In this document: one piece after another, positions 12,247-60,696 of the stretch
Numbering within the stretch: the first letter of the stretch is position 1
Layout of the letters: each line of letters opens with the position of its first letter
Source of the DNA: Cytophagales bacterium
GTDB lineage: Bacteria > Bacteroidota > Bacteroidia > Cytophagales > MED-G16
Direction: 5' to 3'
NCBI GenBank assembly: GCA_045568775.1
Contig: JBJLAJ010000011.1
Location: forward strand, 59,239-123,238
Length of the DNA: 64,000 nucleotides
Made by a program: the position numbers and the translations under genes
The notes under the pieces: generated by a model
The model's database searches: none
What the model saw: the letters and a program-made list of their open reading frames with translations, nothing else
What the model was told of the DNA's origin: nothing

Positions 12247-12694
12247 TAATTAATTTCTTAATTTTTCCACCTAATTTCTCAATCTCCTTAACTGCAGAAG
12301 ATGAAAAATAGTGTGAAGTAACATTGACTTTAGCTTTTAGTTTACCTCTACCAAGAACTTTAATAAGATCAGACTTTTTAGCATAACCGTTCTTAATTAA
12401 AAATTCAGGATTAATTTCTTTTACCTTAGATGCTTCACATAGAGTCTGAATAGTATCTAAGTTAATAGGTTTGGTTTCTATCCTATTTGGAGATCTAAAA
12501 CCAAACTTTGGAACTCTCCTATATAATGGCATTTGCCCACCCTCAAATCCGGCTTTTCTTGAATAACCTGATCTTGATTGAGCACCATTATGACCTCTAG
12601 TAGATGTTCCTCCTCTTCCAGAACCTTGACCTCTAGCTATCCTCTTACCTGATTTTGTTGATCCCTCTGCTGGTTTTAAAGTATGTAGTTTCAT
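12239..12694 (-). CDS. rplO: 50S ribosomal protein L15
   Basis: Starts [12 protein letters not shown] and contains GRGGTSTRGHNG and FEGGQMPLYRRVPK. Confidence 0.96.
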   Translation of the reverse strand: MKLHTLKPAEGSTKSGKRIARGQGSGRGGTSTRGHNGAQSRSGYSRKAGFEGGQMPLYRRVPKFGFRSPNRIETKPINLDTIQTLCEASKVKEINPEFLIKNGYAKKSDLIKVLGRGKLKAKVNVTSHYFSSSAVKEIEKLGGKIKKLIND

Positions 12695-23900: not shown

Positions 23901-24128
23901 TCTGATTTTATCTTTTATTTGATATTGGGTAGAAGAAAATCCCCCTGGAGCCATCATATACCCTTCCTGGACCATCCATCCTCCTAACCCCATACCTCTT
24001 AAAATTATAGTGTCACCTTTCTCATTTATTATAGATTTTCCAGATGTATTAAGAAAGTTTTGAGAGAATGAGTAGTTTGAAAATAATAGAAGAACTACAA
24101 GAAGTTTATAAAATTTAATCATCGGCAT
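20973..24128 (-). CDS. secreted glycoside hydrolase family 5 enzyme with CBM6/35-like modules and a T9SS C-terminal sorting domain
   Basis: 1051 aa. Signal peptide (MPMIKFYKLLVVLLLFSNYSFSQ). GH5 clan-A hallmarks: GLGGWMV, DLHAAPGGQ, the LINEPN acid/base and the FIGETGE nucleophile. Three CBM6/35-like repeats (PGKIYASDFD..., PGKIEAEHYF...NLNWFAF, PGYIQAEDYI...NLNWILF). Por-type tail (LKIYPNPTSEKITVES...FFLVIYEGD). Confidence 0.88.
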   Translation of the reverse strand: MPMIKFYKLLVVLLLFSNYSFSQNFLNTSGKSIINEKGDTIILRGMGLGGWMVQEGYMMAPGGFSSTQYQIKDKIRELIGDEETQKFYNNWLKNHVTKTDIDSMKSWGFNLVRAPIHYNLFTVPIEEEPFPGSYTELDVGFKLLDSLLSWCKENEIYLMIDLHAAPGGQGYNADISDYDPTKPSLWESELNQNKTVELWKRLSQRYKNEQWVAGYDLINEPNWEIPGGVLLKNLYVQLTNVIRAEGDNHILFIEGNWFANDFTGLTPPWDDNLVYSPHKYWSPVDQGYLDWMLPLRDTLNVPLFIGETGENSNFWYRDAVKVFEENGIGWAWWPLKRIGAIQPPLSINYNDKYKMLVDYWNGGNIIPSKEDAIAGLNQLTEDIKIENCFYHKDIIDAMFRQPFSNLTVPYANNLIPGKIYASDFDMGIMGEAYYDAGAEANYGGNFSAWNNGWSLRNDNVDIQESKDSESNGYNVGWIEKDEWMKYSFQLDETGVYNVNVRVATEDDDGSFYFKLNGQQFSKMIDVPKTDSWENWVDLKLDSLVIDEGDESLVFHVNRGTFNLGFYEFIKVSNISEIETGYVSANTYNQNSININFNKNIKNFISVGQLGFKVFINDQEVEVIDVLNSTSPRSIILNLAVEIKPGDVITISYSGNSIKSTDENLLEIFSDEIVKNTISYIHNVPGKIEAEHYFFQKGMELENASDEGDGKNIASLDNGDYADYYIKVNSSGTYNVTYRSAADPNWSSGGQLELSLLDPETGNYNSIQNMILPTTSGWQSWESTSKPLTLSEGNHQLRLKIIEGPFNLNWFAFDDSVSIGIPIPGYIQAEDYIFQSGTSLEMTEDEGGGQNIGYLDSADYVDYVVDVSKTGLYDLSYRVASDGSEDYANGGTIELQLLIDSANYEVLHTISFPSTNGWQDWVTFNDFPKIHLESGNRKLRFFFKKTPFNLNWILFEEFEGTVLGLEKNDIRLKIYPNPTSEKITVESDFITNDIITYKLVDSNGRVFAKRSKLYTSKIYEEILLNGINKGLFFLVIYEGDNLLEIRKIIKSN

Positions 24129-46423: not shown

Positions 46424-47141
46424 AGCATATTTTGCTGGTGACTTTCATCTAGGAAGACCTAATAAAGAATCATCATCTAATAGAGAAAAAAAAATAATTT
46501 CCTGGTTAAATAATATTAGTAAAGACGCTCAAGAAGTTTTTCTGATGGGAGATGTTTTTGATTTTTGGTTTGAATATAGAAATGTCATCCCTAAAGAGAA
46601 TTTAAGATTTCTTTCTACTATTTCTAGATTAATAGATCAAGGAGTTAATTTTCATTATTTTTTAGGTAATCGTGATATGTGGGTTCTGAACTACTTTCAA
46701 GAACTTGGAATAAAAGTGTACGATAAACCTCAAAAATTTCTTTTAAATAAAAAAAACATTCTTGTAGGCCATGGTGATGGAATAGGGAAAGGTGATTTAG
46801 GCTTTAAATTTCTAAAGTTAATTTTTAAAAATAAAATCTGTCAATTTTTATTCAGATGGATTCACCCTGACATTGGAATACCTCTCGGAAAATTTCTCTC
46901 AGGTTCAAAAAAAATGATGAATATTTCAGAAAACGCAAAACAAAATGATAAAAGAATTATAGATTATTGCATAAAATATAGAAAAGAAAATAACATTGAT
47001 GTCTTTGTTTTTGGTCATAGTCATGTCAGAACTAAGAAAAAACTATCTGAAGGTTGTTATTATTTTAATTGTGGAGAATGGATGACAGGTTCGCCTTACC
47101 TTGAATCTGATGGAAAAAATTTTGAACTGAAGTCGAGCTAA
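46386..47141 (+). CDS. lpxH: UDP-2,3-diacylglucosamine diphosphatase
   Basis: Metallophosphoesterase motifs [25 protein letters not shown] and GHSH. The track starts at TTG 46362. I prefer ATG 46386 (ATG 46371 is also possible). All candidates overlap the ftsH end, so the start is uncertain. Confidence 0.8.
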
Positions 47142-48118
47142 CCTATAGATTTTAAAAGTTCATTTCTTTGTTTCTCCCTCAATTCTATCTCAGCTAAATT
47201 ATTATTAGACATTATAAGTGATTTAAGTTCCTCATTTAGATCTTTAAAATTATTTAATTGATTAGGAGTAAATGAGATGTCTAATTTTGAAATATTATTT
47301 TCCAGATCATAACCTAGTTTAGTTAAAATATTGTTATTGATTGACTCAAAAATTAACAGTTCCTTTTCGCTCAATTCTTTTTTGAACTTTTCTTTATTAT
47401 TCCTAATTAACGGCTTTGATAAATTCTCCCATAATCCACCAGAATCTGAAGCTTTCTTAGATTCATTAGATAAATAAAAGTTTAAAAAATCTTTATTATA
47501 CTTAATATCATACTTTATACAAAGATTATTTAGAACCATAGCTGGATCTTCAAGTAAGTCCTCATACTTCACAGAAAAAAAATTTTCAATAGGTGTATTT
47601 TTTTTAATATTATCACAAATAACCTGATCAGAATACCATTTTTTTGCAAGAAAATATATGTGCTTATCACCAATTGGAGCTTTTTTAAAAGAAGAAGCAA
47701 CATCTCTCCCGTCTCTATATATATATATATAAATAGGATTCAAATTTTGAAATTCTTTGATATTATAGAACTTAAAGTTTTGGAGACTTTTACAGCACCA
47801 AAAAGTGGGATTATTATATGTATATATTGCCCTAAATATTTCAAAAAGGTTCCTGTTCTCAATAGAGCTTAAGATTCTTTCAGGAGTTGGTAAATCGCTC
47901 CATTTAATTGGATTATTTTTGATCCATATCAACATATCATCAATCAATCTTTGTGTGTTTTTCCTATTATCTAGATTATTGTATTTATCTATCAAAGGAT
48001 AAAATGTATTAAGTAAATGGGGAGGATGAGGAGCAAAAACATTTTCAAACTCATTTAGCATCAATCTAAACAAATTAGATCCAGATCTTTGAGTTCCAAT
48101 TATTTGAAAAAATTTCAT
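47138..48118 (-). CDS. sulfotransferase family protein (PAPS-type fold)
   Basis: 326 aa with no signal peptide. 5'-PSB-like loop IIGTQRSGSNL and 3'-PB-like YRDGRDVASSF. Its stop overlaps the convergent lpxH stop (CTAA). Confidence 0.8.
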   Translation of the reverse strand: MKFFQIIGTQRSGSNLFRLMLNEFENVFAPHPPHLLNTFYPLIDKYNNLDNRKNTQRLIDDMLIWIKNNPIKWSDLPTPERILSSIENRNLFEIFRAIYTYNNPTFWCCKSLQNFKFYNIKEFQNLNPIYIYIYRDGRDVASSFKKAPIGDKHIYFLAKKWYSDQVICDNIKKNTPIENFFSVKYEDLLEDPAMVLNNLCIKYDIKYNKDFLNFYLSNESKKASDSGGLWENLSKPLIRNNKEKFKKELSEKELLIFESINNNILTKLGYDLENNISKLDISFTPNQLNNFKDLNEELKSLIMSNNNLAEIELREKQRNELLKSIG

Positions 48119-48121
48119 TGA

Positions 48122-49291
48122 TTATATTTCTAAAAAGTATCCTAAGAGTCCAAAAGTTAAAATTAAAAACAATGGGTGGATTTTAGTTTTATTTAAAATA
48201 ATAAAAGAAAATATACATATAGAAATACTTAAAACATTAAAAGATTCTAATTGTTTAAACATAATTATATAACCAGAATAATATATTAATCCTATTATAC
48301 CAATTTTAAACCCTTTAATAATGAGTTTCACAGTATTATTTTTTTTCACGAAGTAATACACCCTAGAAAAAAAAATAATTACAACAGAAGAGGGCAAGAA
48401 TATAGAAAGTGTTGAAATAAAAGCTCCTGTTATTCCATTAATCTTATATCCGATAAAAGTTGCTGTTATTAAAATAGGGCCTGGAGTTATTTGACCCATA
48501 GCGATAGAGTCAATAAATTCTCTTTTTGTAAGCCATCCAATTTGTTCAACAATAATTTTATCGAGATAGGGTATAAACACATATCCTCCCCCAAATAATG
48601 TGAGAGAGATATTAGCAAAAACTTTTGAAAGATTAAAATTAAGGGAATTAATAGGTGCATTATTCAAAAAAACAAATAGTAGAATCATAATTAATGAAGC
48701 AATAACAATTCCCTTTATCCTTATAAATGCTTTCTTGGGGTTAGTAATTTTTTTTATTTTATCTCCATTATAAAGTAAGTTAAGACCACCGCATATCAGC
48801 AATGGCAAAATGATTGAAATATAGCCTTTTATTAATGAGGTCAGAGCAAAACTTAAGATTACAAGTAGAAGTGAAAATATTTTGTCTTTTGAGTCTTTAT
48901 AAAACCCAAATCCAACAGAAAAAATAACTGCTGAAACAACAGGCATTACTCCATCAAAGAATGATGAGAAACCAGGAATATTTCTAGAGTTTAGATATAG
49001 ATGTGAAAATATCACCATTATAATAAATGAAGGAAGTAAAACTCCAATAAATGATATAACAGCTCCTTTCCATCCTCTAATTAGAAACCCAATATAAGAC
49101 GCAACATTTATAGCCATTGGGCCAGGCAGAAAACTTGCCATTGTAATTGCATCTAATATTTTTTTTTTGCTTAAAATTTTTTTTCTGACAGAGAACTCAT
49201 GTTGAATCATAGCTATCAACATCATATAACCACCGAAAGATATTGTCCCTGTTTTTAAAAAAGTAAAGAATAATTTAAAATAACTCATCAA
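48122..49291 (-). CDS. chrA: CHR-family (chromate ion transporter-like) membrane protein
   Basis: 389 aa, duplicated-domain polytopic protein. Contains FLKTGTISFGGYMMLIAMIQHE and, in the second half, SLTLFGGGYVFIPYLDKIIVEQ...GQITPGPI. Confidence 0.8.
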   Translation of the reverse strand: MMSYFKLFFTFLKTGTISFGGYMMLIAMIQHEFSVRKKILSKKKILDAITMASFLPGPMAINVASYIGFLIRGWKGAVISFIGVLLPSFIIMVIFSHLYLNSRNIPGFSSFFDGVMPVVSAVIFSVGFGFYKDSKDKIFSLLLVILSFALTSLIKGYISIILPLLICGGLNLLYNGDKIKKITNPKKAFIRIKGIVIASLIMILLFVFLNNAPINSLNFNLSKVFANISLTLFGGGYVFIPYLDKIIVEQIGWLTKREFIDSIAMGQITPGPILITATFIGYKINGITGAFISTLSIFLPSSVVIIFFSRVYYFVKKNNTVKLIIKGFKIGIIGLIYYSGYIIMFKQLESFNVLSISICIFSFIILNKTKIHPLFLILTFGLLGYFLEI

Positions 49292-49329
49292 AATCTTTTT
49301 GAAGCTCTAAACAATACCTAGAATTAAAT

Positions 49330-50643
49330 TTACAATAACTTTTTATTGTCAATATAATATACTCTATAAAATGAATGATCACTTGATAAATTCCATAAAA
49401 TTTTTCCTGAAATATCAGATATTATTGTTTTATTATTTACTGAACTTGAAAAAAGATAATTTTCATCATCAATTAAGTAAACACTACCCTGCTTGAAAGT
49501 AAATAAGTTATCTGGAAGGAACACACTCTTTTCATGATTAAATTTTTTATTTATCTCATCTAAAGAGAAAACAAGAGCTCGTGATGACTTCCTATATTCT
49601 GACGACCCATTATCAAAGAGCATATATTGACTTTTGTTAACCTTATGTATTGCATGTTGTTGATAGAAAACATCTTTATTATCTAAATTAAAATCACCTC
49701 CTTTTCCTAGTCTCCACATTACATCTCCACTAATAGAATTAATTTTCCAAATTTGATCAAAATTTCTAAATGAAATAAGATAATTCCCATCAGAATCTAT
49801 ATCAATTCCATTTCCATGACTCCAATCATCACGGATTAAATATTGTTCTCTATCCGGTTCTATATGATCAAAAATATTCCATCTCCATATTTTCTCGCCA
49901 TTTTCATCATATACAACAATCCCATCACCCATTAAGGAATCAATTCCATTTTTATAATAATTATAGTATTCATATGTAAGGCCAACAAAATATGATTTTT
50001 TGTTTTCACTAAATTTTAAAATATCATGGTGAAAACTATGTGAGTTAGAAATTTTTGAAAATAATGTGTCACCTTCAAAGCTTACTTCATTAATAATATT
50101 TCTCTTTGATAAGGAAATATAAGTGTTTTTTAATCCTATATTAAATGGTCTAGATAAGACTGAATCACTAATACTATACCATACAATTTCGCCATCATCA
50201 TCCATCATAAACTGAATACCAGGATCTTCTTGAGTTCTAAACAAAAGAAAACCATCAAAAGAAAATGAAGAGTCTTTTACTAAATCAAAAGAAGGAAAAA
50301 CATTTGGTAGACTTCTTGTCTTAAATGAATATAAAATAGAAGAATTAATATTTTCTGATTTTGAAAATTCATTTATTTTAAACAAATAATTGGATGATGG
50401 TTTTAGATAAGGTAATACTATATCAAAAGAATCTCCCTGATAAGTCAAAGAGGAAATAACCTCATTTTGATCTAACCAATATGAGATGTTTGTTGATGTA
50501 TTAAAATCTGTTTTAAAGTTCACATGATATTTTGAATGATTGTAACCTGGTAAATCAACTGAGACCTGACTGAAATTATTTTTTTTAGAGCAAGATATTA
50601 CTAGAAATAAAATAAGAAATGAATAGTTTTTAGAAATCATCAT
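49330..50643 (-). CDS. arylsulfotransferase (ASST) family lipoprotein
   Basis: 437 aa. Lipobox LFLVISC-SKKNN. N-terminal beta-sandwich followed by propeller-type repeats. Contains the ASST-like stretch DWSHGNGIDIDSDGNYLISFRNFDQIWKINSISGDVMWRLG...QQHAIHKV...MLFDNGS. Confidence 0.7.
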   Translation of the reverse strand: MMISKNYSFLILFLVISCSKKNNFSQVSVDLPGYNHSKYHVNFKTDFNTSTNISYWLDQNEVISSLTYQGDSFDIVLPYLKPSSNYLFKINEFSKSENINSSILYSFKTRSLPNVFPSFDLVKDSSFSFDGFLLFRTQEDPGIQFMMDDDGEIVWYSISDSVLSRPFNIGLKNTYISLSKRNIINEVSFEGDTLFSKISNSHSFHHDILKFSENKKSYFVGLTYEYYNYYKNGIDSLMGDGIVVYDENGEKIWRWNIFDHIEPDREQYLIRDDWSHGNGIDIDSDGNYLISFRNFDQIWKINSISGDVMWRLGKGGDFNLDNKDVFYQQHAIHKVNKSQYMLFDNGSSEYRKSSRALVFSLDEINKKFNHEKSVFLPDNLFTFKQGSVYLIDDENYLFSSSVNNKTIISDISGKILWNLSSDHSFYRVYYIDNKKLL

Positions 50644-51910
50644 TTAAAATAATTTTAGTAGATCTTGCTGAGCCATCTTCAAAATGGATCAAAAGTAAAT
50701 GAATACCAACAGCTAAATTATTAAGTTTTAATATAATTTTTTTATGGTTATCATTAATATTCTTAGAAAAAATAATTTCACCTGATAAATTAAAGAATTC
50801 TATTCTATCAATATTTTTAGAAGTTTCGTTTAGTACAATTAAATTTCTATTTGGAGGTAAGGGATTAGGGTACACAGATACTATATTATCTATAAATTCA
50901 TTTCCTGCTACAATACTTTTCTCTTCAAATAAAAGTTGCCCCTTTGCAAAAGCGTCTTCACCTATATTCTTACCCATTATTCTGCCAGGGATATCATCGA
51001 TATAAGGATGAATTCCTCCCCAAATACGAGAAAGAGAACATTGATCAGCAGCATCTCTGTATGTTGCCCACTGTAATTTCATATCAACAGAGGGTCCTTT
51101 TTCAAAGACAAGAAAATTATTTTTAGGGATGATAAATTCTCCAATTCCACCTGGAAAGAATTCATTTCCAGTTAATTTTTCTAATATTATTGCAGCTGCA
51201 CTAGAGTATGTTGAATGCCCTGAAATATATCCTGCAAATGGAGGAGTAACAAAACTTGGTCTTTGATATGGCCACCAATTTTCTGCAAGTATCCACCCAA
51301 CTCCTTTCTCGACATCAGTAGAATCAGCTTCATTAAATCCTTTCCAAGTGAATAATTTAACTTTTCCTAAATTCTTATTATTATCTCCAACTAGAGGGTC
51401 ATTGATTGAAACCATTTCTATATATCCATCAATTAAAGGGAACCCATTTGGGCTGTAATTTGTTGAATCTTTATAAGTAGACTGCCCATTTTCAGATAAA
51501 TATCTGATAACAGAAATTGGCCTAGCATAATCATAATATCCTTTTGATCCCCACGCAGAAATTGCAGCATCATGCATAGCTCCACCCATTAAAAAATAAG
51601 ATTTTATATCCCAATCAAGTCTATCTAACTCTTGTCCTGTTCCCTTAAATTTTCTTATTAGATCATCATCATCATTTACTTCATTTAATATTACAAACCA
51701 ATGTCCAGGAGGTGTCTCGGAATCAGGTCCATCAGCCCAGAATTCAGCAAGAACTCTTGTGTAATCACCCCTTGGCACAATTTGTTCTGTGTATTTCTGG
51801 TTATTAAAGGGATTTATCTCATGTCCAAGACCTATATCTCCACCATCAAAATAATTATATAGATTATGATAGTCTAAAAAATCATTAGGGTAAGAAGTTA
51901 GAGTTTCCAA
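50630..51910 (-). CDS. vanadium-haloperoxidase-like PAP2 domain with T9SS C-terminal sorting domain (3' portion of a split gene)
   Basis: 426 aa, opening at a TTG with no signal peptide. Contains AEFWADGPDSETPPGHW and a complete PAP2 triad: K-x6-RP (KGYYDYARP), SGH (YISGHSTYS) and SR-x5-H-x3-D (SRIWGGIHPYIDD). Tail VSVYPNPLPPNRNL...LLLIHFEDG. Its N-terminal domain half lies in the upstream ORF. Confidence 0.8.
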   Translation of the reverse strand: METLTSYPNDFLDYHNLYNYFDGGDIGLGHEINPFNNQKYTEQIVPRGDYTRVLAEFWADGPDSETPPGHWFVILNEVNDDDDLIRKFKGTGQELDRLDWDIKSYFLMGGAMHDAAISAWGSKGYYDYARPISVIRYLSENGQSTYKDSTNYSPNGFPLIDGYIEMVSINDPLVGDNNKNLGKVKLFTWKGFNEADSTDVEKGVGWILAENWWPYQRPSFVTPPFAGYISGHSTYSSAAAIILEKLTGNEFFPGGIGEFIIPKNNFLVFEKGPSVDMKLQWATYRDAADQCSLSRIWGGIHPYIDDIPGRIMGKNIGEDAFAKGQLLFEEKSIVAGNEFIDNIVSVYPNPLPPNRNLIVLNETSKNIDRIEFFNLSGEIIFSKNINDNHKKIILKLNNLAVGIHLLLIHFEDGSARSTKIILNDDF

Positions 51911-54701
51911 TCGAATTAGGAGATATATCTAGAAGAACCCCGTCAGACCTATCAAGATGAGCCCCCCAAACTGACACCATAGAAAATGAATTTTTAAATA
52001 AGGAATCTAATTTACCTTGATTTAAGGTGTCAAGAAGAGGCGGTGGCCCAGGATCATGATAAATTTTATAGATATTATCATCTCTCAACTTAATAACTAA
52101 GTCTTCTTCTTTGAGAGCAAAAGGGGTCACGTTTCCCCATTCTGGGGAAATAAATTCAGGAATCCCCTCAATTAAGTTTCCTGACTGATCAATAAAATTT
52201 GAAATCTTTAGTGGTTGCCATCTATTAGGATCTATAATGTCAGGGTTACCATAAGTATCTAAATCAAGTGGCGGATTAAGCGGTGAATAATAGTTACTCG
52301 AGTAATCATTTACCTCATTTGAATTATCAAGAAATCCATAATCTGAATATATTTTATTTAAATAATTCCCTATAGATCTTGGGTCACCTGACAAATAATC
52401 TAACTTATCATAATTGATATCATAATCTAATGTTATCATGAGTGAGTCTACTCTTTTATAAGTATCAATTATACCAACTGATTTTTTAAATCTGTGTCTT
52501 ATGAAATTATATGAAGCATAAGAAATGATTTTTTCTATATATTCATCATCATGAACATATGTAGGGTATTCGAAAGGATAGTTAGTTTCATTAATAGTTT
52601 TATCGAGTAAAAAAGGAGTTATATTTTTATTATTAATTAATTTTTCCTTGATAACAAATGCATCATACATTACTGAAGAAAGGTGAAACAAGTTTCTAGC
52701 ATGAATAGGTGGTCTTGCTAAATCATCCCTAATTGCTTGTAATAACACTTCCATCCATTTTCTCGCAATAGACTGACTAGTAAAGTCACTGTTTCCTGAA
52801 TTTTTAAGTAGATTTTTAATCTCAAATGTTTTAGTTAAGTGACATCCTTTTTCATCTCTTACAGTGATTGAGTGTGTACCTGAACTTATATTAGAAAATA
52901 TAAATTTATTTTTAAAGTATGTTCCTCCGTCTAATGATAAATAATAATCATTATCTAAGTTGATGTTATTTATCTGAATTGAGCTAGTGTGCTGGTTCGT
53001 AATATCTTTGACAATAACATCAAAATCTGGGGGAGATGTTTTTTCAATTATTATAGTATCAGAAGAGAACATAGCACCGTATTCATCATAAACATTAACA
53101 AAATAATTTCCACCTTGACTAATACTTATATTTTGAGTTGTATCTCCTGTAGACCATTGGTATCTATGATAGTAACCAGTCTCTAAGGATAACAGACTTC
53201 CATCACAAAAAGAATCACTAACTGAATATATCTTTGGAATTAAAGAAGTAGAGCCCTCGTTTATAGTGATCAATCTATTTCCTTCTATTTGATAAAAAGC
53301 ATCAATCTCTCCAGATGGCCAATACACTTTTAAACTATCAACTGTTTGGCTGTTGCCAAGACCAATAAATAAAGTATTAGAGTTCTGTGAAAGGTAACCC
53401 TCTGTAGAAAATTTACCGCGTGTTATAGTTTTATCTTCAACATAAATAACTACCCTTGATCCATACGCATCACTATTTGAGTTGAAACCAACTAAATTAA
53501 CTTTTAGCCAGTTATTAGTTCCAGAGTAAATATTTTTAAAAAGGAAGGAATTAAAAGGCTCCATGTTTAATACTACAATATCAGGATAACCATCATTATT
53601 TATGTCTCCTACTGCATTCCCATAACTAGATACAGTATCAGAATCTAAGCCTACTGAAATATTTTGCTCAAAATATTTTCCAAAAATATTTGAATAATAC
53701 GCACTAGAATTCACATTAGACCCAACAAGAGACCCACTTACATAAAGGTCCTCATACCCATCTAAATCAAAATCTTCAAACTGAGCTCCCCATCCCTCAG
53801 CATTAAAAGGGACTCCTTTTTCATCAGCACGTTCTGTAAAAGTAAGATCTTGATTATTTACAAATAACTTATTTCCTTCTTCTAAATTTGTAGAATAGAT
53901 ATCAAAAAAAGAATCATTATTAAAGTCTCCTACCGTCACTGACATAGCATCCATCTTAACACCAGTATTAGACTGAGTACTTATATTTGAAAAAGTAGAA
54001 TCTAAATTATTGTAGTAAAGGGAGTTCCCAGAAGACTTATCATTAGCAATGTAAAGATCTTGGACATTATTATTATCTATATCTATAAAAGTAGCACAGA
54101 AAGGTAACTTGTTAATCTCTGAAATAGATGAAATGTTAGTTATATCAATAAAAGATTTTCCTTCATGGTTTAAGTATAAACTTACAGTATTATTTATACT
54201 ATCTCCTGACCTGTATGTCTGCAATAAATCTAGGTATCCATCATTATTAATATCAGACCATGAGGAACCAAAAGAGTTTGAAACAGAATCTGGTAAATTA
54301 ACAGAAGACGTTATATCAATAAAATTAAGAAATCCATTGTTCTCATAAAGTTTATTTTTACCACTAAATGAAGAAACATACAAGTCTTTATCAAAATCAT
54401 TATCAAAATCAATCCAAAGTACTTGCTTTATTTGATAAGGAAAGTCAATGCCAAAAGACAAAGGATATAATTTGTCTCCATTATTTTTTAAAAAAAGTAT
54501 GGAAGTATTTCCATTCGTCGGTATTGTTATATCATCTAACCCGTCTAGATCAAAGTCAACAAAACTTACACCAGCACCTGAAACTCCTTGAAGATATGAA
54601 TGATTGAAATCAAGAGATGAAGATATCTCATTGAAATATAGTTGTGAGAATAATGGGTATTTAGTAGCGAGTAAAATAAAAAAAATAAGATATTTTTTCA
54701 T
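51885..54701 (-). CDS. FG-GAP/VCBS repeat + ASPIC/UnbV (CRTAC1-like) protein carrying the N-terminal half of the haloperoxidase-like domain (5' portion of a split gene)
   Basis: The track starts at TTG 54719, but ATG 54701 gives the signal peptide MKKYLIFFILLATKYPLFSQ. Repeated FDLDGLDD / INNDGYLD / FNNDSFFD / INNDGYPD FG-GAP calcium loops. UnbV motif GSRVVIYVED...GYLSQNSNTLFIGLG...VYWPSG. Ig-like modules. Then ARKWMEVLLQAIRDDLARPPIHARNLFH...NRWQPL...ISPEWGNVTPF. Confidence 0.8.
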   Translation of the reverse strand: MKKYLIFFILLATKYPLFSQLYFNEISSSLDFNHSYLQGVSGAGVSFVDFDLDGLDDITIPTNGNTSILFLKNNGDKLYPLSFGIDFPYQIKQVLWIDFDNDFDKDLYVSSFSGKNKLYENNGFLNFIDITSSVNLPDSVSNSFGSSWSDINNDGYLDLLQTYRSGDSINNTVSLYLNHEGKSFIDITNISSISEINKLPFCATFIDIDNNNVQDLYIANDKSSGNSLYYNNLDSTFSNISTQSNTGVKMDAMSVTVGDFNNDSFFDIYSTNLEEGNKLFVNNQDLTFTERADEKGVPFNAEGWGAQFEDFDLDGYEDLYVSGSLVGSNVNSSAYYSNIFGKYFEQNISVGLDSDTVSSYGNAVGDINNDGYPDIVVLNMEPFNSFLFKNIYSGTNNWLKVNLVGFNSNSDAYGSRVVIYVEDKTITRGKFSTEGYLSQNSNTLFIGLGNSQTVDSLKVYWPSGEIDAFYQIEGNRLITINEGSTSLIPKIYSVSDSFCDGSLLSLETGYYHRYQWSTGDTTQNISISQGGNYFVNVYDEYGAMFSSDTIIIEKTSPPDFDVIVKDITNQHTSSIQINNINLDNDYYLSLDGGTYFKNKFIFSNISSGTHSITVRDEKGCHLTKTFEIKNLLKNSGNSDFTSQSIARKWMEVLLQAIRDDLARPPIHARNLFHLSSVMYDAFVIKEKLINNKNITPFLLDKTINETNYPFEYPTYVHDDEYIEKIISYASYNFIRHRFKKSVGIIDTYKRVDSLMITLDYDINYDKLDYLSGDPRSIGNYLNKIYSDYGFLDNSNEVNDYSSNYYSPLNPPLDLDTYGNPDIIDPNRWQPLKISNFIDQSGNLIEGIPEFISPEWGNVTPFALKEEDLVIKLRDDNIYKIYHDPGPPPLLDTLNQGKLDSLFKNSFSMVSVWGAHLDRSDGVLLDISPNSIGNSNFLP

Positions 54702-54710
54702 CACTCTAAA

Positions 54711-54748
54711 AATAAACAAAAAAAAAGGTAACGACTTACGCCGTTACC
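54711..54748 (-). terminator. rho-independent terminator after the SusCD-lipoprotein operon
   Basis: Minus strand reads GGTAACG-gcgtaagt-CGTTACC followed by TTTTTTTTGTTTATTTTT. It lies 38 nt after the lipoprotein stop, and the T-tract ends about 10 nt before the next ATG (54701). Confidence 0.65.
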
Positions 54749-54785
54749 CTTTTAAATCATATATGTAAATATATGTAGTACCTAG

Positions 54786-55718
54786 TTAGTTCAAGTCAGG
54801 CCAATTCTGTCCATCATTTCTGGTAAGTACAGAAACGGCACCTTCACCATAGTCATTAGTCCAATCAATAGTTAGCGCATTACCTGTTGAGCTAACATCA
54901 TGAAATGTATAAACTTCTGACCATCTAGAAGCACCTACTGGTGATAAAATACCACAAGCATCTTGTACTTTAAGTGTTCCACCTGGATTAGTTGAACCGG
55001 CTCCGTAACAAGCTAAATAGATTCCCCAGTCAAACTGACCAGCAGGCTCTATATATAAGTTGTCACCACCAGATTTAACCCAAGAACCAGAGTAGTTTGA
55101 AGTTGCAGTACAACCCCATCCACCTTGGCCAACACTTACTGCGTCCCAACTTGACTCAAGGTCAGAAGGACACACGACAGAAACGTTAAGTCTATATAAT
55201 GCACCAAATGCATTAGAAGACTGTAAGTTTGGTCCTGTATTGTTATAATCGTAAGTAGTACCATCAGACTTAGTTATAGTAAACCAAAATCTGAAGTAGT
55301 TACCGCCATCAATACCAGTAATATCTTTCCCTACTGCTGCCATAGTAGCAGAAAAAGTTAAACTGATGTCATTACTAAGGTATCCATCAGCATTCTTTAC
55401 GAATTCTGACGAAGATATAGTTCTGAATTGAGTTCTGGCAACACTATTAGCGCCACCACCGATAACGTCCACATATTCTACATCAATATCAAACTCAGTG
55501 ATATTTCCACCCTGAGCTTCATCATAATATTCTACATGCATGTCAATTGAAGAACCAGCTACATCGAAGTAATTGAATTTACCAGTCTGTGACATCTTTC
55601 TAGCGTATGCACCATATTGCATTTCTGGAAAAAGTTCAACCGGTAAAACAGGATCACCACATGATATAGCAGTTGTCATTGCTATGAATGCTACGAATAA
55701 CTTTTTTAAATTTTTCAT
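54786..55718 (-). CDS. hypothetical surface lipoprotein in the SusE/F position of the locus
   Basis: 310 aa. Lipobox MTTAISC-GDPV. The C-terminal half carries 5 further Cys (CPSD, WGCTA, LACYGAG, DACG). I recognise no family. Lies 18 nt downstream of susD. Confidence 0.6.
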   Translation of the reverse strand: MKNLKKLFVAFIAMTTAISCGDPVLPVELFPEMQYGAYARKMSQTGKFNYFDVAGSSIDMHVEYYDEAQGGNITEFDIDVEYVDVIGGGANSVARTQFRTISSSEFVKNADGYLSNDISLTFSATMAAVGKDITGIDGGNYFRFWFTITKSDGTTYDYNNTGPNLQSSNAFGALYRLNVSVVCPSDLESSWDAVSVGQGGWGCTATSNYSGSWVKSGGDNLYIEPAGQFDWGIYLACYGAGSTNPGGTLKVQDACGILSPVGASRWSEVYTFHDVSSTGNALTIDWTNDYGEGAVSVLTRNDGQNWPDLN

Positions 55719-55736
55719 AATTGTTTTAATTTAAAA

Positions 55737-57464
55737 TTAGTTTAATGCACCAGCTCTATCCCAGAAAACTTTCTCACCAAGATCTGTTCTAACAGGAGCG
55801 TTTTTGTTCAAGTTAGAGAAATCTGATGGATACGGGAACAACCTTGGAAAAGTACCAGCGTCAGGAGTCTTCATAGGACCCTGCATCTCAGTTGGATGAC
55901 CAGTTCTTCTCATAGCATTGTACAATTCGACACCGTTAGAGAATGAAGCGAGCCTATGCTCTTTAACAATGATATTCATCTTTGCTTCATTATCAGATGC
56001 GGCATCATACGCACTCAATACATAATTGACATAAGCGTCAATACTTCTTTGTTCAGGAATTGCACCAATTCCGTCACCATTGAAGTCACCAACTTCACCC
56101 CATCCTGCAGAGTAACTCATTACAGAACCAATAGAAGTTGTTAACGCTGTTTCTAACATATCTCTAGCATTTTCACCAGATAAACCATCAAGAGCAGCTT
56201 CAGCTCTCATGAAGTATACGTTAGCAGACATAAGGATCGGAGCGTGTCCGTCTCCTCCGCCTCCATCAACACCACCATGTTGAGTATGAGAAATCCCACT
56301 ACCAAATGTATTAGTTGCAGCATCACCGTCATCATAAGCACCAGCAGCTGGATAAATCCCTCTGTGTGTTCTTTTCTGACCATCTGGAGGAGTACCATCG
56401 TTATTACCGTGGTCTCTTCCCCAGTAACCTTTCGCATTAGCAGCATCAATAGTTGTTGTACTACTTCCTGCACAGAAAGGCCATGTTACTGTAACACCAT
56501 ATGCATTTGTGTAAGGATTGTCATACCATACTGGTCTAGTATCAGGTATCACACAATCAATTGTAAATAAATCTTCACCTACAATATTCAAATCTTGTCT
56601 TTTGTAATAGTATCTAAGTCTTGGATCAGGAATACCCTTTTCTTCCATTAACTCCCACATGTAGTAGTTAGATTGATATGGACCAGAATATGATTCATAC
56701 GATCCACCATACCATGGGTGTCTAGAGTCTGGGTTTTGTCTATTACTTCCGTATTTAAACACCCAATCTTCAGATTTATCGTCTATTACACCAGCAGCTA
56801 AAGCAGCAGCAATTTTACCAGCATCACCTCTGTTTAGAGCAGCTCTAAACTTAAGAGTATTTGCTAAAGTTATCCACTTTGCTTTATCACTACCATAGTA
56901 GATGTCCACAGTTGGAGCACCAATGGCAGTTTTGTTAAGATCTGCAATTGCTTCGTCATATAATCCCTCAACAGCTGTGTATACAGATTCTGCATCATCA
57001 ACTACAGGACTAAGATTAGCAGTTCCTTGCCATGCTTCACTATAAGGAATAGCACCGTGCTTGTCAACAAGCATTTGAAGAGCATATCCTTTTAAGATTT
57101 TACCAGCACCTACGTGAATCCAAGATTCAGCAGCAGTACCAGATTCAATCATCGCGTCGATGTCAGGAACAAGTCCAGAATAAACAGTATTCCAAGATCC
57201 ATTAAAACTTGAAGATAGATAAGCGTTGTCATAGGTTTCACCCCACGTCATACACGCAACTCTAGCTACTTGGAGCATTGGAGTTTGATTTCCGTACCAC
57301 CATCCAGCAAAACTTGTCTGAACAGCATTCCAGTATAAATCAAGACCTGCATTCTCAACAGTCACAGCATTCGGGTTATTTAACTGATCTAATTCAGTTA
57401 TTTCACACGAGTAGCCAACAAACATGAAGGCAACAATCAAGTATAATTTGTTTAATTTTTTCAT
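55737..57464 (-). CDS. susD: SusD/RagB family nutrient-binding outer-membrane lipoprotein
   Basis: 575 aa. Lipobox FVGYSC-EITELD with an acidic post-Cys segment. Helical SusD-like N-terminal region (WNAVQTSFAGWW...). Lies 19 nt downstream of susC. Confidence 0.85.
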   Translation of the reverse strand: MKKLNKLYLIVAFMFVGYSCEITELDQLNNPNAVTVENAGLDLYWNAVQTSFAGWWYGNQTPMLQVARVACMTWGETYDNAYLSSSFNGSWNTVYSGLVPDIDAMIESGTAAESWIHVGAGKILKGYALQMLVDKHGAIPYSEAWQGTANLSPVVDDAESVYTAVEGLYDEAIADLNKTAIGAPTVDIYYGSDKAKWITLANTLKFRAALNRGDAGKIAAALAAGVIDDKSEDWVFKYGSNRQNPDSRHPWYGGSYESYSGPYQSNYYMWELMEEKGIPDPRLRYYYKRQDLNIVGEDLFTIDCVIPDTRPVWYDNPYTNAYGVTVTWPFCAGSSTTTIDAANAKGYWGRDHGNNDGTPPDGQKRTHRGIYPAAGAYDDGDAATNTFGSGISHTQHGGVDGGGGDGHAPILMSANVYFMRAEAALDGLSGENARDMLETALTTSIGSVMSYSAGWGEVGDFNGDGIGAIPEQRSIDAYVNYVLSAYDAASDNEAKMNIIVKEHRLASFSNGVELYNAMRRTGHPTEMQGPMKTPDAGTFPRLFPYPSDFSNLNKNAPVRTDLGEKVFWDRAGALN

Positions 57465-57483
57465 TATATATAAAATTTAAAAA

Positions 57484-60400
57484 TTAGAAAGTTAAACTTA
57501 AAGTAGCTCCCCACTTCTTAGCAGTAGGACCAGTCATCTCATCCCATCCTCTAGCATTAGAACCAGCACCGTAACTTATAACCTCAGGGTCAAAATTTGA
57601 TCCTGCAGGGAAGTTCCATGCATAATGCCAGATGTTCTGAGCAGACATAGTTAAACTAGCACTTCCAAAAGGAGTTCCACTAAGGAACGACTTAGGCGCA
57701 ACTAAAGAAAGAGAAACCTCTCTTATTCTCATTACAGAAGCATCATACATTGAGTTTTCATCATAGAATACACCAGTATTTGGCCAGTAGTGAGCGTTTG
57801 CAGTAGTTTGCTTAACGTTAGGAGATCCGTCATTTGTCAGACCTTTTGTAACGATTGGAACAAACCTATCAAAACCTGTTTCCTCAAGGATACCTCTACC
57901 AAGTAGAGTAGAACTAGTAGTAGAGAATACATCTCCACCTACAGAAGAATCGAACTGAACTCTTGCTGTTACCCACTTATATGTTAACGTATTAGTAACA
58001 CCATAAACATAGTCAGGGTTTGGATCACCAATTACACCATAACCAAGTTGCTGATATCCACCATTTGAGTTAACAATAGGAGTATAGTTTAATCTATCAT
58101 CCCAGTTAACCTGTAAATGATCAGTTCCGTCAAGGCTACCATAGTCTCTCTTGATTACATCACCTTCCATTATACCATAAGGTAGTCCTGGGATAGCGAT
58201 ATTACCTCTACCAGTATATCCACCAACATAAATTTTATCAACTCCATCAGCAATAGATAGTACCTCACTTCTCAATATTGAGAACTGTCCAGCTATTTCC
58301 CAAGTAAAGTCTCTCGACTGAACAGGAATTACTGAAACGATAGCTTCTATCCCTTTGTTATTGATAGATGCTGAGTTAACAGTTGATGATGTATAACCAG
58401 TAGATGCATCAAGATCTAAGTCTATAATAAGATCTTCTGAATCTTTAGTAAATAACGACAAGTCTAAACCAACTTTATTTTGAAAGAATTTACCTTCAAT
58501 ACCGAACTCAAGCTCCTTATGAATCTCAGGAGTTAAATCAGGGTTAGCAAAGAAATTACTTACAGCATTTGAATTTAACAACGCACCACCTGAAGTTTGG
58601 AAAATCTTAGTATATGTATTAAGTGATCCTCTCGTAGAATATGGAGGAGGATAACCTGCAGACGTTCCGAAACCAAATCTAACTTTCAAGAAGTTAAGGT
58701 TTTGATTGCTAATAGACAATGCTTCTAAAGGTAAAATAGATACTGATACAGATGGGTATAGGAATGATCTGTTTGCTTCTTCTAAAGTAGAAGTCCAGTC
58801 ATTTCTAGCAGATGCTGATAAGAATCCCCAGTCTCTATAACCAAGAGTAAGGTTAGCATATGCACCATAAGTATTTTCTCTTAATACGTAAGTATTTGCA
58901 TTAGTCACTGTAAAGTTTTGATGATCGAAGAAGTTATATATAAACATATCAGAACTAGTTATCTGAGATAATTCATAATTTCTAGACTGTAAGTTTCCAC
59001 CTACTAAGAAATCAAAATCAAGATCTTCAGATAATTCTACTGATCCGTTTAAGTTTACAACTTGATCATAATTTATATTATTTCTATTGGACGTAGCATA
59101 ATGGCCAAGAACAGCATAGCCTTGAACTCCATTCTTATTAATCATGTAGTTGTTTAGCATATTAGTTCTATCAAGACCTAGTCTATACGTCAGATTTAAA
59201 AAGTCAGCTATCTCATAACTTAAAGTAATGTTACCGATAAATCTGTTAACATCATCTCTATCCTTAGTGTTATGTAGAGTCCATAAAGGATGTTGCATCC
59301 CGTTATTACCTCTATAATAAACACTACCATGAGTATCTGGTCTTTCGTATTCCATTCCAAATAAGTTCCAACTTCTAGGAGTATACATAACATTACCAAA
59401 TAATGATACATTGGTAGCGTTTGAGTTTCTACTCGGGTTTACAGGTGGCTTATTACTTTGTGATTCAATATAATTGAATGAAGCATTAATTTTTAAACCG
59501 TTTGCAAGCTGAGTATTAGCCCCTAACGAGAAATTATGTTTTCTATAATCGTTGAATGGAACATATCCGTTGTCTTTAGTCCAACCATAATTAGCTTTTA
59601 TTGATGATGAACCAACTTGAGCGTTGACACCAATAGAAGTATTTTGTTGAGAACCGTCGACAAAGAAATTCTGTAAATTGTCATATGCCTGGTATTTCCA
59701 TCTAGCACCTACGTACTGAGGGAATACACCATTCCATATGGCTCTGTCATAAGGGTGCTTAATAGTACCATCAGTCAAACCGTTTCTGTTAGGTTGGTCA
59801 AATGGAGCTCCCCAGTTACTAAATGCAGCTGCGGCTCTATTTTGCCATCCGTTACCATACTGATCTTGATCATCTGGTACACTAGCTACCTGATTCACAA
59901 AATATGATTGACTAAATGTTACTTCTAATCCTTTATTAGCATTAGACCCACCAATTTGGCCAGTCTTTGTTGTAATAAGGATCACACCATTTCTACCAGC
60001 TTCACCGTAAAGTACGGTTGCAGCAAGTCCCTTAAGCACACTAATTTCCGCTACGTTGTTTGGATCAAGATCTAAGAATCTACTAGAAGCAGTAGCACCA
60101 CCACCAGTAAAACCTCTATCCCTATAAGTTGATGCATCAATTGGCACACCATCTAAAACGAATAAAGGCTGATTAGAACCTGAAATTGAGGTATATCCCC
60201 TAATAATAATATTAGTTCCAGTTCCAGTGACACCACTTTGCGATGTGATATCAACACCAGGAACTTTACCTCTCAACAACCTAGCTATGTCTGCTTCGGG
60301 TCTAGCTTCAAGCTGTTCACCACCAACAGAAGTCACCGCATATCCTAATGCAGCTTTTTCTTTGGTGATACCCAATGCAGTTACAACAACCTCTTGAAGT

Positions 60401-60696
60401 TCTTCAACATCAGAGCTCATAACTACATCCACCACTGATCTAGAGCCAATTGCAATTTCTTGCGACGCTAAACCAATAAATGAAAATACTAAGGTACTTC
60501 CGTCACTAGGAACATCTAGTGAATAGGAACCGTTGACATCTGTAGTAGTACCAACAGTTGTACCTTGAAGGATAACGTTAACACCAGGAAGACCACTTCC
60601 GTCTTCATCAGATGATACCGTACCCGAGATAGTTCTGTCTTGAGCCCAAACATTTGAAGCCAAAAACAAGAAACTAACTAGTATAAATCTAAACAT
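57484..60696 (-). CDS. susC: SusC/RagA family TonB-linked outer-membrane transporter
   Basis: 1070 aa. Signal peptide. Carboxypeptidase-regulatory-like domain (ISGTVSSDEDGSGLPGVNVILQGTTVGTTTDVNGSYSL). Plug region (VVVTALGITKEKAALGYAV, NIIIRGYTSISGSNQPLFVLDGVPI). Ends in aromatic LSLTF. No N-terminal STN signalling domain. Confidence 0.93.
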   Translation of the reverse strand: MFRFILVSFLFLASNVWAQDRTISGTVSSDEDGSGLPGVNVILQGTTVGTTTDVNGSYSLDVPSDGSTLVFSFIGLASQEIAIGSRSVVDVVMSSDVEELQEVVVTALGITKEKAALGYAVTSVGGEQLEARPEADIARLLRGKVPGVDITSQSGVTGTGTNIIIRGYTSISGSNQPLFVLDGVPIDASTYRDRGFTGGGATASSRFLDLDPNNVAEISVLKGLAATVLYGEAGRNGVILITTKTGQIGGSNANKGLEVTFSQSYFVNQVASVPDDQDQYGNGWQNRAAAAFSNWGAPFDQPNRNGLTDGTIKHPYDRAIWNGVFPQYVGARWKYQAYDNLQNFFVDGSQQNTSIGVNAQVGSSSIKANYGWTKDNGYVPFNDYRKHNFSLGANTQLANGLKINASFNYIESQSNKPPVNPSRNSNATNVSLFGNVMYTPRSWNLFGMEYERPDTHGSVYYRGNNGMQHPLWTLHNTKDRDDVNRFIGNITLSYEIADFLNLTYRLGLDRTNMLNNYMINKNGVQGYAVLGHYATSNRNNINYDQVVNLNGSVELSEDLDFDFLVGGNLQSRNYELSQITSSDMFIYNFFDHQNFTVTNANTYVLRENTYGAYANLTLGYRDWGFLSASARNDWTSTLEEANRSFLYPSVSVSILPLEALSISNQNLNFLKVRFGFGTSAGYPPPYSTRGSLNTYTKIFQTSGGALLNSNAVSNFFANPDLTPEIHKELEFGIEGKFFQNKVGLDLSLFTKDSEDLIIDLDLDASTGYTSSTVNSASINNKGIEAIVSVIPVQSRDFTWEIAGQFSILRSEVLSIADGVDKIYVGGYTGRGNIAIPGLPYGIMEGDVIKRDYGSLDGTDHLQVNWDDRLNYTPIVNSNGGYQQLGYGVIGDPNPDYVYGVTNTLTYKWVTARVQFDSSVGGDVFSTTSSTLLGRGILEETGFDRFVPIVTKGLTNDGSPNVKQTTANAHYWPNTGVFYDENSMYDASVMRIREVSLSLVAPKSFLSGTPFGSASLTMSAQNIWHYAWNFPAGSNFDPEVISYGAGSNARGWDEMTGPTAKKWGATLSLTF

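Follow-up and report, generated by a model that had tools for sequence, protein, structure and literature searches.

A conserved SusCD–aryl-sulfotransferase–CHR–sulfotransferase gene cassette in Bacteroidota and its possible role in sulfotransfer across the cell envelope

The window analyzed here, a 64,000-nt stretch of contig JBJLAJ010000011.1 (GenBank assembly GCA_045568775.1, positions 59,239 to 123,238), comes from a marine, Marinoscillum-like bacterium of the Cytophagales and contains, at positions 47138–60696, a block of eight open reading frames (ORFs), all on the minus strand (Table 1). The first gene encodes a SusC-type transporter and the last one a sulfotransferase of the Sulfotransfer_3 family (hereafter ST3); between them lie the genes for a SusD-like lipoprotein, a 310-aa lipoprotein, a split pair of ORFs with FG-GAP/ASPIC and haloperoxidase-like (VCPO-like) domains, a lipoprotein of the aryl-sulfotransferase (ASST) family and an anion transporter of the CHR family. 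From SusC to ST3, the spacings are 19, 18 and ~84 nt, an overlap at a frameshift, 14 nt of overlap between the VCPO-like gene and the start of the ASST gene, ~38 nt, and 3 nt from the CHR stop codon to the ST3 start. Comparison with other genomes indicates, with high confidence, that SusCD, ASST, CHR and ST3 form one functionally linked cassette. More tentatively, and somewhat short of an even chance, the block can be interpreted as the minimal form, in Cytophagales, of a cassette of the polysaccharide utilization locus (PUL) type that is conserved across Bacteroidota and in which sulfotransfer would be split across two compartments and coupled to import by SusCD.

An earlier interpretation of this DNA, made without database searches (hereafter, the sequence-only reading), described eight co-oriented ORFs spaced by 3–84 nt, proposed protein families to be checked by profile searches and quoted the motifs K-x6-RP, SGH, SR-x5-H-x3-D, GxxRSGS and RDGRD. 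The coordinates and spacings are confirmed, each family call is upheld by Pfam and NCBIfam profiles, and the motifs are all located in the window proteins. Searches with the same profiles detect no glycoside hydrolase (GH), sulfatase, peptidase or regulator in 47138–60696, bearing out the statement that the window copy lacks carbohydrate-active enzymes (CAZymes) and regulators. Of the features that define a PUL, the window copy thus has the adjacent pair of SusC and SusD genes and lacks both a linked CAZyme and a linked sensor or regulator. A profile search finds no STN domain on the window SusC, and an Rfam scan of 46–64 kb finds no elements, riboswitches included, at E <= 1.

Table 1. Features of the SusCD–ASST–CHR–ST3 block in the window
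Feature	Position	Strand	Basis
SusC/RagA-type TonB-dependent transporter, 1070 aa	57484–60696	minus	TIGR04056 518 bits (cut-off 368); CarbopepD_reg_2 and Plug domains
SusD-like lipoprotein, 575 aa	55737–57464	minus	PF12771 6e-37; PF12741 3e-26
Lipoprotein, 310 aa, lipobox AISC-GD	54786–55718	minus	no Pfam/NCBIfam match above threshold
Hairpin, 14-bp stem followed by a T-run	54722–54753	minus	terminator prediction; spacer fold -24.7 kcal/mol
FG-GAP/ASPIC ORF	51885–54719	minus	FG-GAP_3 9e-28; UnbV_ASPIC 1e-15
VCPO-like ORF with type IX secretion system sorting domain	50630–51910	minus	VCPO_2nd 31 bits (cut-off 27); Por_Secre_tail 28.6 bits (cut-off 27)
FG-GAP/ASPIC and VCPO-like split pair as one gene, ~1356 aa	50630–54701	minus	intact in locus L001
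K-x6-RP motif (VCPO-like)	51518–51544	minus	motif search
SGH motif (VCPO-like)	51215–51223	minus	motif search
SR-x5-H-x3-D motif (VCPO-like)	50996–51031	minus	motif search
ASST-family lipoprotein, 437 aa	49330–50643	minus	PF05935 1e-26, 94.3 bits (cut-off 24.2); PF14269 3e-15, 57 bits (cut-off 27)
CHR-family inner-membrane anion transporter, two domains, 388–389 aa	48122–49291	minus	PF02417 (Chromate_transp) 2e-77 in two stretches; TIGR00937 222 bits (cut-off 171.7)
ST3 (Sulfotransfer_3), PAPS-type sulfotransferase, 326 aa	47138–48118	minus	PF13469 8e-16
GTQRSGSN (5'-PSB motif of ST3)	48074–48097	minus	motif search
YRDGRDVASS (3'-PB motif of ST3)	47690–47719	minus	motif search

With an alignment of 16 ASST sequences as the query, a scan of GTDB species, each represented by one genome, returns 29 loci (designated below by L numbers), nearly all from metagenome-assembled genomes (MAGs) of Cytophagales, namely uncultured Marinoscillum sp., Flammeovirgaceae, Cyclobacteriaceae and Reichenbachiella. 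A tblastn comparison of the window proteins with all loci, 28 of which are informative, finds ASST, CHR and ST3 together in 25 species loci (the exceptions are L018, L022 and L024), and SusC is encoded upstream in all Cytophagales loci with sufficient upstream DNA, down to 31% SusC identity. The sequence-only reading had made its case depend on synteny in related genomes, and the order is kept in these 25 loci; it had named Flavobacteriales as the group to survey, whereas the closest genomes are Cytophagales MAGs, though the cassette occurs in Flavobacteriales too. The arrangement SusC-SusD-lipoprotein-[FG-GAP/VCPO]-ASST-CHR-ST3 is complete in L003 (the best match, with 86–97% protein identity to the window), L004 and L007 and, as far as the contigs reach, is also present in L005, L006, L008 and L012. 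Only the FG-GAP/VCPO gene is missing from L013–15, where SusC is 68% identical to that of the window, and from L023, L025 and L029 (~44%). In L019–21, ASST is present twice, and the FG-GAP and VCPO-like parts are encoded by separate genes, the VCPO-like one on the opposite strand.

Beyond Cytophagales, 11 neighborhoods of distant ASST or ST3 homologs with precomputed Pfam annotation were sampled, which is not a census. The same core is found in Formosa sediminum (L036, SSF-NagA-SusC-SusD-ASST-CHR-ST3-GH20-MFS-NagB/PIG-L), in Abyssalbus ytuae (L037, SusC-SusD-ASST-CHR-ST3-GH20-Inositol_P (CysQ-like)-APS kinase, preceded by a divergent gene for a hybrid two-component system (HTCS)), and in metagenome loci that continue with GH123_N (L034/35, SusC-SusD-ASST-CHR-ST3-GH123_N) or with GH123_N and DUF5107 (L042–45, SusC-SusD-ASST-CHR-ST3-GH123_N-DUF5107). 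In Prolixibacteraceae (L032), the order is extracytoplasmic function (ECF) sigma factor-FecR-SusC(STN)-SusD-ASST-ST3-DUF5107-GH123_N-M1 peptidase-CHR. Partial versions are found as well: ECF-FecR-SusC-SusD-ASST without CHR or ST3 in Sphingobacterium (L033), CHR-ST3-ASST without SusCD in a Bacteroidetes MAG, CHR-ST3 alone in L039, and GH89-CHR-ST3-CysQ-like-APS kinase with neither SusCD nor ASST nearby in L040. Judging by these partial versions, the tightest unit is CHR-ST3, joined next by ASST and then by SusCD.

The genes that accompany the cassette bear on its substrate. The sequence-only reading envisaged a pathway for small molecules rather than glycans, and this part of it does not stand: cassettes of other lineages include exo-glycosidases (GH20, GH123_N and GH2), GH63-like proteins, NagA/NagB and PUL regulators (e.g., in Reichenbachiella, L028, GH63-like, GH2 and kinase genes come after the cassette), and GH89 is encoded beside the CHR-ST3 pair of L040. 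Regulators accompany the cassette or SusCD-ASST in L032, L033 and L037, and no sulfatase is found in any annotated cassette neighborhood. Free phenols are no likelier as the substrate than a glycan or glycoconjugate, and the GH20, GH123_N, GH89 and NagA/NagB partners hint at N-acetylhexosamine-bearing glycoconjugates; the window lineage either lost the partner glycosidases or never had them. Proteins of ~1000 aa with DUF5107 and TPR adjoin the cassette or CHR-ST3 in three separate lineages (L032, L040 and L042), in the company of an M1 peptidase in L032 and L040 and of a GH123_N protein in L032 and L042.

The ASST-family protein shares its Pfam family with AssT of Escherichia coli (3ELQ) and with BvASST, although the similarity to AssT is remote (profile E 1.6e-6) and the window protein has no DsbL/DsbI partner. 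A profile of 37 ASST homologs aligned to 3ELQ matches AssT H436, the catalytic sulfo-histidine (asparagine in entry 4p04), with H330 of the window protein, within FYQQHAIH. In the same alignment, H356 and N358 correspond to H276 and N278, H252 to H205, and R374 to R293; across the 37 homologs, H330 and H205 do not vary and the conservation of H276 is 90% or more, and R293 is invariant in a closer homolog set. The catalytic residues are present, and sulfuryl transfer is the predicted activity. In the window ASST, the residues after the lipobox LVISC are S-K-K-N-N, none of them acidic; in SusD, the lipobox GYSC is followed by E-I-T-E-L-D, an acidic run that resembles a surface-export signal. The same distinction holds across the cassettes, in which ASSTs have lipoprotein or secretion signals devoid of the acidic export motif and SusDs have acidic runs. 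In Bacteroidota, acidic residues after the lipobox cysteine direct lipoproteins to the cell surface; under this rule, the window ASST probably faces the periplasm and SusD would face the exterior. The closest solved relative is 9kf4, annotated just as “Sulfotransferase” (2e-29), and no paper on 9KF4 or 9KF6 was found in the searchable literature. A lipoprotein signal is also present in BvASST of Bacteroides/Phocaeicola vulgatus (PMC12809581). For the ASSTs studied so far, fixed linkage to SusCD, CHR and an enzyme of the type that uses 3'-phosphoadenosine 5'-phosphosulfate (PAPS) is unreported. According to a 2026 review, it is still not known which donors and acceptors bacterial PAPS-independent aryl-sulfotransferases use in nature or what they do for the cell (PMC13426309), and a 2025 study of a lipoprotein ASST from Bacteroides describes the co-occurrence of ASST and PAPS-type enzymes as lacking an explanation (PMC12809581).

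The CHR protein contains the duplicated CHR domain and matches the family profile, and it scores below the ChrA and ChrB equivalog cut-offs (119 and 118 bits, respectively, versus 250). A CHR homolog is encoded directly upstream of ST3 in every locus that has CHR, except for L032, where it is 10 kb away. Given this constant link to a sulfotransferase, chromate resistance was rejected as the role of CHR in the cassette, and the neighboring genes point to a substrate related to sulfur. ChrA itself is an efflux pump for chromate, a sulfate analog (PMC2751784). In ST3, GTQRSGSN and YRDGRDV..S, the 5'-phosphosulfate-binding (5'-PSB) and 3'-phosphate-binding (3'-PB) motifs, are invariant in 19 homologs, there is no signal peptide, and the closest solved structures are those of the PAPS-dependent CurM ST (4e-16), OLS ST (1e-13) and the tyrosylprotein sulfotransferases TPST1/2, so that ST3 is predicted to be a cytoplasmic PAPS-dependent sulfotransferase. 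Homologs of ST3 in L037 and L040 have, directly downstream, genes for adenosine 5'-phosphosulfate (APS) kinase and a CysQ-like protein, which points to consumption of PAPS; on this ground, operation of ST3 in reverse, salvaging sulfate as PAPS, was rejected. A second sulfotransferase, of the Sulfotransfer_4 family (2e-61), is encoded at 12600–13298 of L025, directly after ST3 in a Cyclobacteriaceae-type cassette.

The components of the cassette differ in their rates of divergence. Between the window and L003, L004 and L007, SusC is 94–96% identical, CHR is 92–97% identical, and SusC, SusD and CHR are as conserved as FtsH (92–97%). The ASST and ST3 proteins diverge fast and in step, with identities of 86/86, 77/76 and 70/70%, respectively, which could reflect either co-evolution on a shared ligand or similarly weak constraint. 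Homologs of the 310-aa lipoprotein, with 24–95% identity by tblastn, occupy the same position in L003–L016 and L022–L029; this protein, presumably a surface binder, is confined to the cassettes of Cytophagales. Its single-sequence AlphaFold2 model has a mean predicted local distance difference test score (pLDDT) of 41 and is unusable. The genes for SusC, SusD and the lipoprotein (54786–60696) have a GC content of 0.37–0.40, compared to ~0.27–0.30 in the neighboring genes. The excess resides in codon positions 1 and 2, the GC content at position 3 being 0.24–0.26 versus 0.17–0.22, which indicates Gly/Ala-rich composition rather than foreign origin; horizontal transfer of SusCD was rejected because the bump is not seen in the third position and the same arrangement exists in relatives. 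The contigs of L001, L005, L006, L008 and L012 stop within or just past the SusCD-lipoprotein block (L001 begins 57 nt before the FG-GAP gene), and these ends are likely assembly breaks where SusCD is near-identical between co-occurring species.

The closest parallel for a pair of sulfotransferases of these two types is caprazamycin biosynthesis in Streptomyces, where the PAPS-dependent Cpz8 sulfates a triketide pyrone, the carrier made by Cpz6, and the ASST-type Cpz4 passes the sulfate on (PMC6731281). Like that cluster, the cassette encodes a sulfotransferase of the PAPS-dependent type together with an ASST-family enzyme, which does not use PAPS; in contrast to it, the cassette has no type III polyketide synthase (PKS) to form a carrier, the ASST is an exported lipoprotein, so that CHR would be needed between the two steps, with the link between them inferred, and the context is uptake or catabolism rather than antibiotic biosynthesis. 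The cassette shares with canonical Sus-like PULs the SusC/SusD pair followed by genes for a surface lipoprotein and exported enzymes, and its relatives come with HTCS or ECF/anti-sigma regulators and GHs; the difference is that its invariant enzymes are two sulfotransferases, with a CHR transporter, and not CAZymes. The BT_0411–BT_0416 cluster of B. thetaiotaomicron similarly combines a cytoplasmic PAPS-dependent sulfotransferase with an anion transporter (PMC9417993), and an APS kinase and a PAP phosphatase-like gene occur in L037 and L040. Unlike that cluster, the cassette uses CHR as the transporter, has no ATP sulfurylase genes and includes ASST and SusCD, and the window copy has no PAPS-cycle genes.

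Taken together, these parallels are compatible with a sulfuryl relay across the envelope, in which sulfate derived from PAPS in the cytoplasm would be loaded on a small carrier, exported by CHR and transferred by the periplasmic ASST to a substrate imported by SusCD; this specific mechanism is, on balance, doubtful. In the broader two-compartment interpretation, SusCD and the surface lipoprotein would import a glycoconjugate or a phenol-bearing substrate into the periplasm, while cytoplasmic ST3 would spend PAPS to sulfate a small acceptor. CHR would then move the resulting anion, or more generally a sulfur oxyanion or sulfate ester, across the inner membrane, a step drawn as export because efflux is the direction biochemically shown for the family. 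The membrane-anchored periplasmic ASST, being unable to use PAPS, would pass the sulfuryl group to the imported substrate or exchange it with that substrate. Overall, this would amount to a two-step sulfation like that by Cpz8 and Cpz4, but split across the inner membrane.

Several observations weigh against the two-compartment interpretation. The substrate, the donor, the direction of transport and all the mechanistic steps are deduced from gene context. The halves of the cassette occur apart, with CHR-ST3 in L039 and L040 having no ASST nearby and SusCD-ASST in L033, L018, L022 and L024 having no CHR-ST3, so that the relay is not obligatory for either half. No dedicated carrier-making gene comparable to the Cpz6 PKS is found in the window locus or its annotated relatives, and no PAPS-cycle genes are found near the window copy. 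A catabolic, substrate-induced locus would have no evident reason to spend PAPS. Furthermore, FolD-QueE-OmpA, upstream of SusC, is also syntenic in many Cytophagales loci, so that part of the conservation in this order is simple vertical inheritance, a caveat removed by the recurrence of the cassette in differing genomic contexts elsewhere.

An alternative without any relay is that CHR imports sulfate for PAPS synthesis, ST3 sulfates an imported sugar or aglycone inside the cytoplasm, and the periplasmic ASST separately exchanges sulfate between imported aryl sulfates and phenols. The CHR-ST3 pairs that lack ASST fit this scheme, or a simple role in sulfation and export, better than they fit an obligatory relay, and the CHR-ST3-CysQ-like-APS kinase run of L037 and L040 is also in its favor. 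There is precedent for clusters that combine a transporter with PAPS genes and a sulfotransferase, BT_0412 having been “envisioned” as the sulfate importer of the BT_0411–0416 cholesterol-sulfotransferase cluster (PMC9417993). Chromate is an analog of sulfate, but the biochemically shown direction of ChrA is efflux (PMC2751784). Moreover, CHR is tied to ST3 in every locus but to PAPS genes in just 2 of ~10 annotated loci, and the regular placement of ASST between SusD and CHR is left unaccounted for. Sulfate is abundant in seawater, which makes a dedicated importer less needed. This scheme, too, appears rather unlikely.

The split pair of ORFs is the basis of a different interpretation. Its combined architecture includes a signal peptide, an FG-GAP/ASPIC (CRTAC1-like) propeller, a two-bundle domain resembling vanadium haloperoxidases (VHPO) and a C-terminal sorting domain of the type IX secretion system (T9SS; PF18962 28.6 bits, cut-off 27; TIGR04183 32.9 bits, cut-off 23). 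In the DNA alignment, the window reads GGAAACTCTAAC at 51897–51908, with an extra C near 51903, and L001 reads GGAAATCTAAC; a one-base gap relative to the window is also present in L003, L004 and L007. On L001, a metagenome contig with an identical ASST, the gene is uninterrupted and encodes 1356 aa with FG-GAP, UnbV_ASPIC, VCPO_2nd and Por_Secre_tail. Thus, the split pair is one gene broken by a 1-nt insertion, either a strain-specific pseudogene or a sequencing error, and the window does not contain an intact VHPO-like gene; if the frameshift is real, the C-terminal half, having no signal peptide, cannot reach the T9SS. The motifs K-x6-RP, SGH and SR-x5-H-x3-D are conserved across 24 homologs. 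The sequence matches of the split-pair protein in the PDB are CRTAC1 and four vanadium haloperoxidases, and the top 10 PDB fold matches of a model of the homolog P0221 (56% identical; pLDDT 68) are all VHPO (E 5e-10 to 4e-6). In this model, the C-terminal domain has a VHPO-like fold with metal/phosphate-binding residues; it could possibly act instead as a PAP2-type phosphatase, given that the motifs do not tell the two apart. The domain shares these residues and the two-helical-bundle fold with bacterial vanadium-dependent haloperoxidases (NapH1, NapH3 and Zobellia VIPO) but is only 12–15% identical to them and differs in its DUF6851, VCPO_2nd and T9SS domains, the fusion to the FG-GAP/ASPIC propeller and the frameshift. 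The C-terminal ORF has matches in more than 7900 database proteins, which for the most part are ~730 aa long and contain DUF6851, VCPO_2nd and T9SS domains; members are 53–57% identical across Cytophagales, Flavobacteriales and Chitinophagales, and one homolog stands alone among housekeeping genes. The FG-GAP/ASPIC part is a recurrent Cytophagales accessory, with lipoproteins of ~1100 aa at differing positions in L023, L026 and L028, and the VHPO-like domain is a lineage-specific accessory, not specific to the cassette.

The sequence-only reading regarded this haloperoxidase-type enzyme as part of a pathway acting on small molecules, phenolic, halogenated or sulfated, such as algal exudates. 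Spelled out, the secreted haloperoxidase would oxidize or halogenate the substrate outside the cell and the sulfotransferases would conjugate the products, possibly as a detoxification route in which sulfation is followed by efflux through CHR. The motifs of the domain are intact, its sequence and fold matches are exclusively vanadium haloperoxidases, its gene runs 14 nt into the ASST gene, phenols are acted on by ASSTs (PMC13426309, PMC12809581), and the window locus has no glycosidase. Nevertheless, we consider this pathway quite improbable, given that the VHPO-like family is very large and usually stands alone, that the domain is missing from most cassettes (including L013–15, L023, L025, L029, L032 and L034–37) and frameshifted in the window, with a C-terminal half devoid of a signal peptide, that haloperoxidases and PAP2-type phosphatases are indistinguishable by motifs, and that cassettes elsewhere carry glycosidases and GlcNAc catabolic genes.

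The gene order is punctuated by a hairpin that also bears on the unity of the cassette. The sequence-only reading placed a terminator near 54.7 kb, and this is a real 14-bp stem with a T-run, the strongest of 14 terminator-like sites, where shuffles expect 6.0 +/- 2.6. In all 11 loci that were folded (the window junction, L003, L007, L012, L013, L015, L023, L032, L034, L036 and L037, spanning Cytophagales, Formosa, Abyssalbus, Prolixibacteraceae and one metagenome lineage), a strong hairpin of -18 to -36 kcal/mol, in most cases followed by a T-run, lies in the spacer past the last outer-membrane gene. The presence of a hairpin at this junction in every lineage folded indicates a design feature of the cassette, not a boundary of unrelated units; we infer that it is an intrinsic terminator or attenuator that splits the outer-membrane genes from the downstream genes. 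In the window, the T-run and the next ATG are only ~20 nt apart, and the Bacteroidota TAnnTTTG promoter motif is found neither upstream of SusC nor in these ~20 nt, so that the downstream genes are most simply expressed by read-through, which would result in high expression of SusCD and lower expression of the enzymes. The alternative, raised by the sequence-only reading, of two unrelated neighbors, a constitutive SusCD-lipoprotein unit ending at the terminator and an independent VHPO-like/ASST/CHR/ST3 operon adjacent to it through conserved core gene order, accords with the strength of the terminator, the FolD-QueE-OmpA synteny across Cytophagales and the far slower evolution of SusCD (94–96% identity) than of ASST and ST3 (70–86%), but is very improbable because ASST-CHR-ST3 follow SusCD in 25 of the 28 Cytophagales loci and, with differing flanks and SusD families, in at least five other lineages, because the hairpin recurs at the same junction in 11 of 11 loci, and because the ~20 nt after the T-run contain no promoter motif.

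The flanks of the block consist of housekeeping genes, with an OmpA/TPR protein and homologs of QueE and FolD upstream and an LpxH-like phosphoesterase and FtsH downstream; judging by ORF sizes, most of the remaining window looks like a ribosomal-protein and rpoBC region. In the Sphingobacterium locus (L033, 11500–14086), SusC-SusD-ASST are followed by homologs of the window QueE (57% identity) and OmpA/TPR protein (30%), the same two neighbors that precede SusC in the window and in other Cytophagales; this would mean either that the location is old or that the OmpA/TPR/PD40 protein has a functional connection. The only CAZyme seen in the window is a secreted 1051-aa protein encoded at 20973–24128 (minus strand), with a GH5 cellulase domain, three CBM6 stretches, CBM35 and a T9SS sorting domain, at an unusual site inside the apparent ribosomal-protein/EF-G/rpoBC region, as gauged by ORF sizes. 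Shikimate genes for a DAHP synthase/chorismate mutase fusion, dehydroquinate synthase and EPSP synthase are present at 494–3856 (plus strand), with no apparent link to the cassette.

The sequence-only reading considered the system undescribed, and indeed no description of a SusCD-ASST-CHR-sulfotransferase cassette was found in the searchable literature. The constant association of ASST with a SusCD importer, the CHR anion transporter and a PAPS-type sulfotransferase provides a concrete, testable hypothesis for the natural role of ASST, and cultured carriers exist, namely Formosa sediminum (CP041637, 3.33–3.35 Mb) and Abyssalbus ytuae (CP094358, 2.32–2.34 Mb). The cassette widens the PUL concept to loci with sulfotransfer, not hydrolysis, as the constant chemistry and suggests a sulfur-related role for CHR transporters. 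In the window lineage, it belongs to the core genome of streamlined open-ocean Cytophagales, and the FtsH-level conservation of SusCD suggests an important, constitutively used uptake route. If the relay across the inner membrane is real, it would give exported bacterial aryl-sulfotransferases their first physiological donor pathway, would extend the role of CHR beyond chromate resistance and would represent a PUL with sulfation as the invariant chemistry in place of hydrolysis.

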